DNA of 33,577 nt from Flavobacteriales bacterium (GCA_007129985.1 SKUL01000192.1:1-33577); one strand, 5' to 3'; positions 25,575 to 32,152 are shown, counted from the stretch's first letter. The notes: a model not told the origin generated them from the letters alone. Numbers and translations are program-made.

Positions 25575-25589
25575 CTGCCACAATGTCAG
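25575..25589. promoter_or_regulatory. Palindromic operator-like box CTGCCACAATGTCAG (CTGnCA-N3-TGnCAG)
   Basis: Dyad symmetry, position over the expected -33 region of the miaB promoter, and related boxes upstream of groES. Confidence 0.5.
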
Positions 25590-25607
25590 GAGCAAGGTCA
25601 AAATTTG

Positions 25608-25615
25608 TACCTTTG
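25608..25615 (+). promoter_or_regulatory. -7 element TACCTTTG for the miaB operon
   Basis: Exact TAnnTTTG followed by C, 28 nt upstream of ATG 25644. Confidence 0.7.
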
Positions 25616-25643
25616 CGGGCCTTAACTTTTTGCCAGTACACAC

Positions 25644-27074
25644 ATGTTTGACTCACAACCCAAAGTGATTGACGAAAGCCGCCAGGGTGAAGCAATTGCC
25701 CTTGACAGCTCTCCTGATAGCGGAAAAAAGCTTTACATTGAAAGCTACGGCTGCCAGATGAATTTTTCCGACAGCGAAATCGTAGCATCCATCTTAACCG
25801 GTGCGGGATATTCTACCACCCGCGACGAGCAGGAAGCCGAAGTAGTCCTTATTAATACCTGCTCCATCCGCGATAACGCAGAGCAGAGGGTTCGGAATCG
25901 CCTGCATCATTTTCACGCGAGAAAACGCCGGCAGCCCGGACTGGTTGTGGGTATTTTGGGATGCATGGCAGAGCGGCTTAAGTCTACATTGCTCGAAGAA
26001 GAAAAAATTGTGGACCTCGTTGTGGGCCCCGACGCCTATCGCGACCTTCCCAACCTCATCGGCGAGGTAGAAAGCGGGCAAAAAGCTGTAAACGTGTTGC
26101 TCTCCAGAGAGGAAACCTACGCAGATATCAGCCCGGTGCGCCTCGACCAGAACGGAGTTACCGGATTTATCTCCATCATGCGTGGCTGCGACAATATGTG
26201 CTCCTTTTGCGTGGTGCCTTTTACCCGTGGCCGGGAGCGAAGCCGAAACCCCGAAACCATTGTGCACGAAGCAAAATACATGTTTGACCAGGGCTATCGC
26301 GAGGTAACACTGCTGGGGCAGAATGTGGATTCCTACCGATGGAACATCACCAAAAAGAACGAGGTCATTGACCCCGAACAACCCACCGTAAACTTTGCTC
26401 AGCTGCTCGAGAAAGTTGCTTTGGCCGTGCCCGAAATGCGCATTCGTTTCTCCACAAGTCACCCAAAAGACATGACCGACGATGTGCTCGAAACCATGGC
26501 GAAGTACCATAACATTTGCAAGTACATCCACCTGCCGGTGCAATCGGGCAGCACTTCAGTGTTGAAGCGCATGAACCGGGGATACAGCCGTGAATGGTAT
26601 TTGAACCGCATCGCTGCCATTCGTCGGATTATGCCTGATTGCGCCATCAGCACAGATATTATTGCGGGCTTTTGCGGCGAAACTGATGCCGAGCACGCCG
26701 ATACCATCAGCCTGATGCGCAATGTGGCCTACGATTTTGCGTACATGTTTAAGTACTCTGAGCGTCCGCGAACGCTGGCTGAAAGAAAATTTGAAGACGA
26801 TGTTCCTGAGGAAGTGAAACAGCGCCGGCTGGAAGAAATCATTGAACTTCAGATGGAAAACGGAAAAGCCAGCAACGAGCGTGCTGTGGGCAAAACCTTT
26901 GAGGTACTGGTTGAGGGGCCGTCAAAAAAATCGGATGCAGAATGGTGCGGCCGAAATTCGCAAAACGCCATGGTGGTTTTCCCCAAGGGAGATTTTGAGA
27001 AAGGCTCATACATCCACGTTGAGATAAACGCTTGCACTGCTGCAACGCTCAAAGGAGAAGTAGTACCGTCATGA
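25644..27074 (+). CDS. miaB: tRNA-2-methylthio-N6-dimethylallyladenosine synthase MiaB
   Basis: [21 protein letters not shown], radical [11 protein letters not shown] and a C-terminal TRAM domain. Confidence 0.97.
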
Positions 27075-28291
27075 ACATTCAGCAGATTAAACAGCGCTTT
27101 GGGATTATCGGCAACAGCCCCCAGCTGAACCGCGCCATTGAGGTAGCCATGCAGGTTGCTCCTACCGACCTCGCTGTGCTGATTACCGGCGAAAGCGGAA
27201 CCGGAAAAGAGGTGATGCCGCAAATCATTCACCACCTGAGTGCCAGAAAACACAAAGAGTATATTGCGGTAAACTGCGGTGCCATTCCCGAAGGAACCAT
27301 TGACAGCGAGCTTTTTGGACACGAAAAAGGCTCCTTTACCGGTGCGCACGACTCCCGCAAAGGATATTTTGAAGTGGCCAATGGCGGTACCATCTTTTTG
27401 GATGAAGTAGCAGAACTCCCGCTGCAAACACAGGTGCGCCTGCTGCGTGTGCTCGAAACCGGTGAGTTTATGAAGGTGGGAAGCTCCAAAGTGATTAAAA
27501 CCGACGTGCGAGTAACCGCTGCCACCAATGTAAACGTACTTGAAGCCATTCGGAAAGGGCGTTTTCGCGAAGACCTTTATTACAGGCTGAACACCGTTCC
27601 CATCCACCTGCCATCACTGCGACAGAGGAAAGAGGACGTCCATCTCATCTTCAGAAAATTTGCGGCCGATTTTGCAGACAAATACAAAATGCCCGGCATA
27701 CAACTAAGTCCGGAAGCGGTAACCATGCTTGAGAACTACAACTGGCCGGGTAATATCCGTCAGTTAAAGAATATCACCGAGCAGATATCGGTTATTGAGG
27801 AAGAGCGCATGATAACGCCCGAAATGTTGATGCGCTACCTGCCCGATTCGCAAGCCTCGCTCCTACCGGCCGTTGTGAGCAGCGAACAATCGGGTGGAGA
27901 TTTCAGCGAGCGCGAGATTTTATACAAGGTGCTTTTCGACATGAAATCGGATTTGCATGATTTGAAAAAACTGGTGCTCGGCATTATGCAGGATGGCGGC
28001 CAGCCCGACAAGGAAGACATGGCGCTTATCAAAAAGCTGTATCAGTCAGAAGACGGGTGGAAATCCCTTGAGCCCTCGCAAGCGGAAGTAAGTCGGGAAC
28101 GCGATGAACCTTATGAGCGCTTCCCGGAGCCCATCGAAATTGAGGAATCACTTTCGCTGGAAGCCACAGAGCGTGAATTGATTAAAAAGGCGCTTAAGAA
28201 ACACAACAACAAGCGAAAAGACGCGGCACGGGAGTTGGGAATCAGCGAGCGCACCCTCTACCGAAAAATAAAGGAGTACGACCTCAACTAG
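27071..28291 (+). CDS. Sigma54-interacting AAA+ enhancer-binding protein with Fis-type HTH and no N-terminal sensor domain
   Basis: ATG 27071 overlaps the miaB stop (ATGA). [54 protein letters not shown] and [16 protein letters not shown] motifs. Confidence 0.93.
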
Positions 28292-28297
28292 GGCCCT

Positions 28298-30039: not shown

Positions 30040-30077
30040 CAAAATGCCCGTCTGACCTGACGGGCATTTTGCTTTTT
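30040..30077 (+). terminator. Intrinsic terminator after secG
   Basis: 13-bp perfect stem CAAAATGCCCGTC-N6-GACGGGCATTTTG followed by CTTTTT. Confidence 0.75.
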
Positions 30078-30123
30078 ATGCCCCTTCGTCACCATCAACT
30101 GACCAATTTGCAGTTTACAGCCA

Positions 30124-30139
30124 TTGGCACAAAATGTGA
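30124..30139 (+). promoter_or_regulatory. Putative sigma54 (-24/-12) promoter TTGGCACAAAATGTGA upstream of groES
   Basis: Exact TGGCAC -24 element. The -12 position reads GTGA rather than TTGC (GG-N10-GA). No TAnnTTTG or CIRCE in this intergenic region. Confidence 0.5.
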
Positions 30140-30194
30140 CCACCGTGCGGTGACATTAAACAACAATGTTTAACCCTACTAAAACGAAAAAACC

Positions 30195-30476
30195 ATGTCA
30201 GTAAACGTTAAGCCATTAGCCGACAGAGTGTTGGTAGAGCCTGCTCCGGCTGAAGAAAAAACAGCCAGCGGAATTATCATTCCCGACACGGCCAAGGAAA
30301 AGCCACAGCGCGGTACTGTTATCGCTGCAGGAAAAGGCAAGCCCGATGAGCCAATGACTGTAAAGGAAGGCGATACGGTAATGTACGGCCAATACGCCGG
30401 AACCGAAATCAAGCTCAACGGAAAGAGCTACCTGATTATGCGTGAATCAGACATTTTCGGCATCATCGAAAACTAA
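30195..30476 (+). CDS. groES: Co-chaperonin GroES
   Basis: [33 protein letters not shown] and IMRESDI. Confidence 0.98.
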
Positions 30477-30523
30477 TCTGAACCCAATCCATTCAAGTTA
30501 AATCACTTAAAAAGCATACAACA

Positions 30524-32152
30524 ATGGCTAAGAACATCACTTTTGACCTCGACGCAAGGGACAAACTCAAAAAAGGAGTGGACGCCCTCGCCAATGCCGT
30601 GAAAGTAACCCTCGGCCCCAAAGGTCGCAACGTAGTAATTGACAAAAAATTCGGAGCACCCAGCATCACCAAGGACGGTGTTACCGTAGCCCGTGAAATT
30701 GAACTCGAAGACGCCATCGAAAACATGGGCGCACAAATGGTAAAAGAGGTGGCCTCAAAAACTGCCGACATTGCCGGCGACGGAACCACCACTGCAACCG
30801 TTCTCGCTCAGTCAATCGTGAAAGGTGGACTCAAGAACGTGGCTGCCGGTGCCAATCCTATGGACCTGAAGCGCGGAATTGACCTCGCTGTGAGCGCAGT
30901 TGCTGCCGAGCTGAAAAACATCAGCAAAGAGGTAGGCGAAGACAACTCAAAAATTGAGCAAGTTGCAACCATCTCTGCCAACAACGACAAGACCATCGGT
31001 AAACTGATTGCCGAGGCCATGGAGAAAGTGAAGAAAGAAGGTGTAATCACCGTTGAGGAAGCAAAAGGTACCGAAACTTACGTTGATGTAGTGGAAGGTA
31101 TGCAGTTTGACCGCGGTTACCTCTCTCCTTACTTCGTGACCAACAGCGAGAAAATGATTGCCGATTTGGACAATCCTTTTATCCTGATTTACGACAAGAA
31201 GATTTCGGTGATGAAAGACCTGCTTCCCATTCTGGAAAAAGCAGCACAAACCGGTCGTCCGCTGTTGATTATCTCTGAGGATGTTGAAGGCGAAGCGCTG
31301 GCTACTCTGGTAGTGAACAAAATCCGTGGCTCGCTGAAAATTGCGGCCGTGAAAGCACCGGGTTTTGGAGACCGTCGCAAAGCCATGCTCGAAGATATCG
31401 CCATCCTTACCGGTGGAACTGTAATCTCAGAAGAGCAAGGCCGTCGTTTGGAAGATGCCAGCCTCGCCGACCTCGGTCAGTGCGAAAAGGTGAGCATTGA
31501 CAAAGACAACACCACCATCGTAAACGGTGTGGGCGAGAAAACCGCTATTGAGGCCCGCGTAAACCAAATCAAAGCACAAATCGAAACCACCACCAGCGAC
31601 TACGACAAAGAAAAGTTGCAGGAGCGTTTGGCCAAACTGGCCGGTGGTGTGGCTGTGCTTTATGTTGGAGCCGCCTCTGAGGTTGAAATGAAGGAGAAAA
31701 AAGACCGCGTTGATGATGCTTTGCACGCAACCCGCGCTGCTGTAGAGGAAGGCATCATCCCCGGTGGTGGAGTAGCCTTTATCCGCGCTATTGATGCACT
31801 TGAGAAAATCAACGGAGAGAACGCCGATCAGAACACAGGTGTTGCCATTGTTCGCCGTGCGCTTGAGGAGCCCCTTCGTCAGATTGTAGCCAACGCCGGT
31901 GGCGAAGGTTCAATCGTGATTCAGAAAGTACGCGAAGGAAAAGATGACTTTGGTTTCAACGCACACACCGAAGTGTATGAAAACCTTCTTGCTGCCGGTG
32001 TGATTGACCCCACCAAAGTGGCGCGTGTGGCTATTGAGAATGCCGGTTCTATCGCCGGAATGCTCCTTACCACCGAGTGTGTGATTTCTGACATCCCCGA
32101 AGAAAACCCTGCACCCCCAATGGGTGGCGGCGGAATGCCGGGCATGATGTAA
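30524..32152 (+). CDS. groEL: Chaperonin GroEL
   Basis: [37 protein letters not shown] and GGM tail. Confidence 0.99.

Follow-up and report, generated by a model that had tools for sequence, protein, structure and literature searches.

A sensor-less enhancer-binding protein as candidate sigma-54 activator of chaperone genes in Bacteroidota, and a helically phased box at their promoters

We analysed a 33,577-nucleotide (nt) stretch of DNA, here called the window, which is contig C116 of a Flavobacteriales metagenome-assembled genome (G000: 2.5 Mb, 381 contigs, 81% complete; hereafter the own genome). Our subject is a gene in it for a bacterial enhancer-binding protein (bEBP), together with the promoter of the chaperone genes groES-groEL just downstream and a short palindromic box found both at that promoter and in front of the operon to which the bEBP belongs. 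An initial annotation had placed an operon miaB-bEBP-lptE-TPR-like-secG directly 5' of groES-groEL, and a Pfam profile search of the window bore this gene order out, with all of the genes on the plus strand. The operon opens with miaB, which encodes a tRNA methylthiotransferase (25644-27074; UPF0004, Radical_SAM and TRAM), and continues with the bEBP gene (27071-28291), lptE (28298-28810; PF04390, 2.2e-12), a gene for a TPR-like protein (28810-29724; only weak TPR matches, E 1.6e-4, below the Pfam cut-off) and, as last gene, secG (29728-30012; identified by Pfam). These genes are tightly packed, with intergenic gaps of no more than 6 nt. They are followed by groES (30195-30476; Cpn10) and groEL (30524-32152; Cpn60). 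Hairpin analysis found an intrinsic terminator behind secG (30040-30077, plus strand), made up of a 13-bp stem (30040-30071), a 6-nt loop and a T run. Since so strong a terminator follows secG, groESL forms a separate transcription unit.

The open reading frame of the bEBP as listed starts with TTG at 27032. Because the orthologues all begin at the Met of MNIQQIKQ (80 of 80), we take the true start to be ATG 27071, which overlaps the miaB stop codon by 4 nt and gives a protein of 406 amino acids (aa). From its domains, this protein is a bEBP without a sensory domain and a predicted sigma-54 activator. It matches the sigma-54 interaction AAA+ domain (PF00158, Sigma54_activat) at 3e-68, with 229 bits against a cut-off of 20.2, as well as AAA_lid_14 and HTH_8. 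The AAA+ domain begins at about residue 12 in all 35 orthologues aligned, leaving no N-terminal regulatory domain, and on this ground we regard the protein as lacking a sensor. In the window the sigma-54 contact loop is GSFTGA; of the 35 sequences, 33 have either this or GAFTGA, and the other two have S at the fifth place; F89 and T90 are invariant, as are G43, G45, K46 and E47 of the Walker A motif GESGTGKE. Behind the AAA+ domain lies a conserved helix (residues 280-308), then a disordered, poorly predicted linker of variable length, and finally a Fis-type helix-turn-helix (HTH; HTH_8, 7e-15). The three helices of the latter (363-402) are predicted with a local distance difference test score (pLDDT) of ~90, compared with a mean of 78.8 for the whole structure model, and the recognition helix is invariant in the 35 orthologues. 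No NCBIfam equivalog reached its cut-off for this protein.

We then considered the promoter of groES. A TGGCAC -24 element had been proposed at 30125-30130 and is indeed there: it is followed by AAAAT GTGA, so that the GG and the -12 TG stand in canonical register and together make up the sigma-54-type promoter TGGCACAAAATGTGA (30125-30139, plus strand), with a predicted start near 30151. In the canonical sigma-54 motif, TGGCAC-N5-TTGC, exactly one helical turn separates GG from G(C); before groES the -12 element reads TGA in place of the canonical TGC, with A replacing the final C. For comparison we took one genome per species carrying the bEBP, which gave 80 loci from Flavobacteriales and Bacteroidales at 60-80% protein identity. 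Of these, 59 have groES-groEL after secG in the same orientation. Contig ends interrupt most of the others, and four (L009, L032, L038, L052) have no groES within ~3 kb. The 59 relatives and the window made a set of 60 groES upstream regions, and TGG[CT]A[CTA]-N7-G was found 40-160 nt before the groES ATG in 59 of them (once as CGGCAC), the exception being a weaker promoter variant at locus L021. The family consensus is TGGCAYAAAATaTGA. Four loci (L060, L064, L079, L081) have 1.3-1.7 kb inserted between secG and groES, and in these the promoter keeps its usual distance to groES. When a position-specific scoring matrix (PSSM) was trained on the groES sites and applied with a lenient threshold (score >=0), the groES promoter was the best match in the own genome, with a score of 23.7. 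A sigma-54 circuit presupposes rpoN, and this gene is present on contig C108 (Sigma54_DBD, 2.5e-54).

Signals of other kinds were looked for in the same spacer. As the initial annotation had stated, groES is preceded neither by TAnnTTTG, which is absent from both strands of 30013-30194, nor by the controlling inverted repeat of chaperone expression (CIRCE), which does not occur in the window; with as many as 4 substitutions allowed, the genome as a whole yields only three matches, all of them poor and all on other contigs. As a positive control, the scan recovered perfect CIRCE elements before groES in G415, G492 and G435. Three metatranscriptomes, which held small shares as contigs only, contained no contig spanning the secG-groES spacer; one X3 contig begins near 30157, close to the predicted start near 30151, although contigs cannot show starts. 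An inverted repeat, ACCACC-GTGC-GGTGAC, lies directly 3' of the -12 element at 30139-30154, around the predicted start, and is absent from the two nearest relatives.

The box was described initially as a dyad, CTGnCAnnnTGnCAG, shared by the bEBP operon and groES, and a sequence scan confirmed its three copies: perfect at 25575-25589, with 1 mismatch at 30036-30050 and with 2 mismatches at 30099-30113. Expressed as the 13-bp motif TGnCA-N3-TGnCA, they correspond to three plus-strand boxes. Box 1 (TGCCACAATGTCA, 25576-25588) is an exact match in the divergent topA-miaB spacer and a proposed autoregulatory operator; 32 nt after its start comes TACCTTTG (25608-25615, plus strand), a match to TAnnTTTG, which we take to be the Bacteroidetes housekeeping -7 element. 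Box 2 (TGACAAAATGCCC, 30037-30049; 1 mismatch) starts 88 nt before the T of TGGCAC and is a proposed distal activator site, and box 3 (TGACCAATTTGCA, 30100-30112; 2 mismatches) starts 25 nt before it and is a proposed proximal site with its centre near -45. Boxes 2 and 3 are conserved in the two nearest relatives, L002 and L003. Box 2 overlaps the 5' arm of the secG terminator hairpin. Within the window itself, dyads at up to 2 mismatches are no commoner than chance (18 against 15.65 expected, standard deviation 4.03; 29 of 100 shuffles reach 18), and the test therefore needed other genomes.

To the 60 groES regions we added the regions upstream of dnaK (30), grpE (30, of which 29 were usable) and htpG (29, of which 28 were usable), taken from 41 Flavobacteriales genomes of 16 families. 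Counting boxes with at most 1 mismatch 5' of the best promoter-like site, we found 138 in 109 regions (17.7 kb; htpG excluded), compared with a mean of 5.0 in shuffled controls (standard deviation 2.2, maximum 12). Measured from the start of the box to the T of TGGCA, the spacing is far from uniform: it clusters at 25, 35-36, 46, 57, 67-68, 77-78, 87-88 and 98 nt, with 25 nt the commonest position in the family. No fewer than 105 of the 138 boxes lie within 1.5 nt of 25 + 10.4k, where ~40 are expected, and the Rayleigh R at 10.3 bp is 0.68, against a 99.9th percentile of 0.23 for the null. The box is thus helically phased to sigma-54-type promoters, on one face of the helix, 25 + ~10.4k nt 5' of the -24 element. 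Given GG at -25/-24, a box at 25 nt is centred near -45. By gene, a promoter-like site and an in-phase box were present in 59 and 49 of the 60 groES regions, in 28 and 24 of the 30 dnaK regions, in 22 and 17 of the 29 grpE regions and in 26 and 25 of the 28 htpG regions; grpE and htpG boxes stand nearly always at 25 nt. No other conserved upstream motif was seen in the promoter-aligned groES regions. Since 25 and 88 nt are both phased family positions, the degenerate boxes of the window sit where the family would place them. The notion of a shared palindromic box therefore stands on its conservation and phasing across genomes, where the box precedes groES, dnaK, grpE, htpG and the bEBP operon, and at the chaperone genes at fixed phased distances from TGGCAY-N7-G; its degenerate copies inside the window do not exceed chance.

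In most relatives the secG terminator hairpin reads AAATGTCAGnnTGTCA...CTGACATTTTTT (secG-groES spacers of L004-L080), which means that the hairpin itself carries the TGnCA-N3-TGnCA box, and the terminator is conserved there in sequence as well as in shape. To judge from these sequences, one hairpin may double as secG terminator and as activator site for the next promoter. An Rfam search of 25300-30300 gave 0 matches, which means that the conserved hairpin belongs to none of the described RNA families.

At the promoter of the bEBP operon, the box is better preserved. Of 48 relatives, 43 have an exact TGnCA-N3-TGnCA in front of miaB, with its first base 42-69 nt upstream of the ATG, while a control of 338 kb of coding sequence from the same loci contained 2 exact boxes. 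The commonest form, cTGnCA-TTT-TGnCAg, is the dyad of the initial annotation. In 40 of the 43 miaB boxes, TAnnTT[TC]G starts 28-32 nt after the box start. The -33 and -7 elements of Bacteroidetes promoters are spaced 19-21 nt apart, and by that spacing the -33 element is the TTTG in the centre of the box. Where the bEBP gene has no miaB before it (33 loci, mostly Bacteroidales), a box at no more than 1 mismatch still lies just upstream in 15, which argues that the box tracks the bEBP operon and not miaB or topA per se. The boxes of these loci overlap -7 or -33 elements, and often read TGTAATTTTGTCA, overlapping a TAATTTTG -7 element.

The other chaperone genes of the own genome show the same arrangement. 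Sigma-54-like sites precede dnaK (TGGTATAGAAATTGA, 53 nt before the ATG, with a one-mismatch box upstream), grpE (TGGCAAACAATTTGC, 26 nt before the ATG, with a one-mismatch box at 25 nt) and htpG (TGGAACAACAATTGA, 55 nt before the ATG, with a one-mismatch box at 26 nt). The lon gene, on contig C92, also has a sigma-54-like site (TGGCACGGCTATTGA, 90 nt before the ATG); the sole box-like element there, TGACAATTTGACT, sits downstream of this promoter. Among the best 45 sigma-54-like sites of the genome, an in-phase box occurs only at groES, htpG and two others, and strong sites without a box precede non-chaperone genes. The second-best site of all (contig C80, ~11917-11937, score 22.3) is box-less and lies in front of a 201-aa ORF that matches no Pfam family; another bEBP probably acts on it.

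We next examined how the bEBP is distributed. An orthologue is present in 398 of the 401 Flavobacteriales genomes sampled, including 328 of 328 high-quality ones, and in 25 of 25 sampled genomes from other families of Bacteroidia. Other Bacteroidota classes have homologues at 44-50% identity, often still linked to miaB or lptE, and their groES genes carry either a sigma-54-type promoter with TGTCA-type repeats (families f28, f34 and f36) or a perfect CIRCE (G415, G492 and one G435 copy). Three loci from another class (L202, L207, L209) have a palindrome CTGACA-N4-TGTCAG downstream of a sigma-54-type groES promoter, with a spacing of 4 and not 3, which could be an operator or a hairpin of the 5' untranslated region. 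No tiny endosymbiont genome that might display a minimal regulon was found among the 401 Flavobacteriales, the smallest being 0.9 Mb and 54% complete.

An elimination test was offered by four genomes of one genus (G105, G370, G149 and G176), all of them 99-100% complete. Each has rpoN and a single true bEBP, which scores ~228 bits to PF00158 while all other matches remain below 36 bits. This sole bEBP is the window orthologue, in the same miaB-to-groEL cluster. Sigma-54-type promoters with boxes are retained in these genomes at groES (exact box, at 67 or 77 nt), dnaK (67 nt) and grpE (25 nt), and an exact box precedes miaB. The box thus occurs together with rpoN and this bEBP in near-complete genomes where no other bEBP is encoded. 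The own genome has two further bEBPs, one being a receiver and AAA+ protein without HTH (contig C203, 207-1379) and the other cut by a contig end.

Taken together, these observations make the sensor-less bEBP the best candidate for an activator of chaperone genes in Bacteroidota. We consider it likely that it binds the box, activates groESL, dnaK, grpE and htpG through sigma-54, and represses its own operon. Three observations suggest that it is the protein that binds the box: the best boxes lie on the promoter of its own operon, in which it is the sole DNA-binding regulator; boxes are phased to promoters of a type that needs a bEBP; and the four genomes that have no other bEBP keep both promoters and boxes. 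In the mechanism that we propose, the bEBP would bind the 13-bp TGnCA-N3-TGnCA through its Fis-type HTH, and from phased boxes at groES (30100 and 30037), dnaK, grpE and htpG its AAA+ ring would drive the opening of the closed sigma-54 polymerase complex at the expense of ATP. Autorepression is expected because the box of the own operon covers the -33 position: occupancy there would lower synthesis of the bEBP from its housekeeping-type promoter. Lacking a sensor domain, the protein must receive its input in trans or by way of the conserved helix and linker; for an input in trans our guess, by analogy with sigma-32, HrcA and HspR, is titration by chaperones. The computational checks proposed with the initial annotation all turned out as it had predicted, and promoter, phased box, rpoN and elimination test support the circuit, while binding, activation, autorepression and heat induction are predictions made from sequence.

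Several points weigh against this interpretation. The link between box and protein is one of position and elimination. With the proximal site near -45 there is little space for the DNA to loop, and Fis-type dimers do not usually recognise half-sites 8 bp apart. At the sigma-54 promoters of the own genome the boxes deviate from the motif by 1-2 mismatches. Exact boxes are fewer there than expected genome-wide (25 against ~38), and only the miaB box is informative; to this comes the null dyad statistic of the window. The lon promoter has no box upstream of its sigma-54-like site, and a clpB-like gene on contig C244 has no sigma-54-like site in the 260 nt examined. Only 5 of 29 grpE promoter-like sites score >=8. 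The statistics given for the box ignore kinship and, as related genomes are not independent, overstate the case. G435, from another class, encodes a homologue linked to miaB, and nevertheless a perfect CIRCE stands before one of its groES copies. Finally, in the part of the report available, blood agar and osmotic stress, rather than heat, are given as the conditions inducing the chaperone cluster of Flavobacterium psychrophilum (PMC9723704).

Of the alternatives, the one that survives best holds that another protein, either a dedicated repressor or a DNA-bending architectural protein, binds the box and that the bEBP acts elsewhere or from solution. In its favour are the site near -45 and the 8-bp spacing of the half-sites, both unusual for a bEBP, and the CTGACA-N4-TGTCAG palindrome seen downstream of the groES promoter, at an operator-like position, in some genomes of another class. 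However, the best-conserved exact boxes lie at the promoter of the very operon whose only DNA-binding regulator is the bEBP, the box is phased to sigma-54 promoters that show no other conserved upstream motif, and the recognition helix is invariant in the 35 orthologues. We therefore regard binding by another protein as unlikely. A second alternative is that the bEBP controls envelope or secretion genes, that groESL is its neighbour merely through conserved gene order, and that another bEBP serves the chaperones. The operon does hold lptE, secG and a TPR-like gene whose product occurs in some Bacteroidota as a fusion with SecG, the own genome encodes two more bEBPs, and the sigma-54 set of F. 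psychrophilum includes envelope genes such as skp and a rhomboid protease in the available part of PMC9723704. Against this, the four 99-100% complete genomes without another bEBP keep rpoN as well as promoters and boxes at groES, dnaK and grpE, and one of the other bEBPs of the own genome has no DNA-binding domain, which makes this reading quite improbable. That TGGCAC is no working promoter at all, with transcription of groESL coming from the operon before it or from a housekeeping promoter that escaped recognition, and with the dyads reduced to chance and terminator sequence, could draw on the null dyad statistic, the overlap of box 2 with the terminator and the TGA at -12, but it is very hard to reconcile with an element conserved in 59 of 60 regions from two orders, a strong terminator between secG and groES, a spacer free of TAnnTTTG, boxes that also occur outside hairpins and in phase, and groES transcript starts mapped with this motif in F. 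psychrophilum (PMC9723704, as far as that source was available).

Returning to the bEBP as activator of the chaperone genes, we compared it with known systems. The closest analogue in architecture and logic is PspF, the phage-shock activator of E. coli. PspF, too, consists of nothing but an AAA+ domain and a Fis-type HTH and has no sensor at its N-terminus, and the AAA+ domains are clearly related (PDB 2vii, E 3.9e-56); it activates a stress regulon through sigma-54, as we propose here. PspF sites overlap the promoter of its own gene, resulting in negative autoregulation. The present protein differs in that its targets would be cytoplasmic chaperones, in its extra conserved helix and long variable linker, and in the proximal phased site 25 nt from -24. 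As a PspF equivalog it was rejected (TIGR02974, 278.7 bits against a cut-off of 443.55), and a search for PspA (PF04012) found nothing in the own genome at its 81% completeness. The TPR-like protein of the operon was considered as a PspA-like partner of the bEBP. An Atlas cluster of 377-aa proteins in which a protein of this kind is fused to SecG (PF03840 in 97% of members) points instead to the translocon. On reading its sequence, the TPR-like protein (28810-29724) has an acidic proline-rich middle and no evident signal peptide, and it was found only in Bacteroidota.

NtrC offers a precedent for the dual role: at glnAp1/glnAp2 it is an activator of a sigma-54 promoter and a repressor of a sigma-70-type one, using one kind of site for both. 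NtrC differs in having a receiver, a phosphorylation switch and sites further upstream; the window bEBP has no receiver and scores 315.5 for TIGR01818 against a cut-off of 558.6. The sigma-32, HrcA/CIRCE, HspR/HAIR (HspR-associated inverted repeat) and CtsR systems serve the same target genes, groESL, dnaK, grpE and htpG, and chaperone feedback is the usual input in sigma-32, HrcA, HspR and CtsR systems. There, control is exerted by an alternative sigma-70-family factor or a repressor, whereas we propose an ATP-driven sigma-54 activator. In the case of HrcA, CIRCE is missing from the own genome while it precedes groES in some other Bacteroidota classes.

That chaperone genes of Bacteroidota have sigma-54 promoters has been published before, as the available parts of two reports make clear. 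In F. psychrophilum, transcript starts with a sigma-54-type motif, SM4, were mapped at groES-groEL, lon, dnaK, grpE-dnaJ and htpG, which belong to one co-expression cluster, and additionally at skp, clpB, a rhomboid protease gene and others (PMC9723704, Table 2A). The SM4 regulon shares with our set the promoter type and the genes, to which it adds mapped starts and co-expression; three bEBP genes were noted in that organism and the activators left open, and the part of the report at hand mentions no upstream box, phasing or autoregulation. Predicted sigma-54 promoters were also enriched at chaperone gene families of Bacteroidota and Planctomycetota in the accessible portion of PMC12316311, which in addition cites Sabree 2009 (its ref 80) for grpE and groES of B. 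thetaiotaomicron being sigma-54-dependent. The gene cluster itself has a counterpart on the gut Bacteroides fosmid SMG 9, where the available text of PMC4010731 describes a 432-aa AAA+/sigma-54/HTH_8 regulator, LptE, a hypothetical protein and SecG, followed by ClpB. The order regulator-LptE-hypothetical-SecG is the same, with the chaperone ClpB in place of groES; that regulator is reported as giving E. coli salt tolerance, with no target, site or chaperone link given in the same portion of text. Our literature search, which did not cover most subscription journals, found no report naming the miaB-linked bEBP as activator, the 13-bp box, its phasing with a -45 site or the overlap with the protein's own -33 element, and PMC3162934 (Francke 2011) makes no mention of Bacteroid*, miaB, lptE, secG or groE. 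The novelty suggested at the outset thus applies to the activator and its box, which we did not find in the literature, and does not extend to the link between sigma-54 and chaperone genes, which had been published (PMC9723704 and PMC12316311, each seen in part).

Bacteroidota are dominant bacteria of gut, sea and soil, and their chaperone-gene sigma-54 promoters are known with no activator named in the literature that we searched. If our interpretation is true, the heat-shock or protein-quality response of a whole class would become testable with one gene and one 13-bp box, and the bEBP would be an example of its kind working from a phased, promoter-adjacent site. The bEBP and rpoN would be predicted to be essential, or nearly so, wherever groESL depends on them, and promoter and activator would make a compact orthogonal pair for engineering Bacteroides and Flavobacterium. 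A wider view, which we hold only tentatively and think somewhat less probable than not, is that the family acts as master regulator of proteostasis throughout class Bacteroidia and in parts of its sister classes. It would be a core and probably essential sensor-less sigma-54 activator that gauges protein folding in the cell through titration by the chaperones it controls, acting from an unusually promoter-proximal, phased -45 site and throttling itself at -33. Were this so, bacterial heat-shock control would gain one more general paradigm next to those of sigma-32, HrcA, HspR and CtsR.

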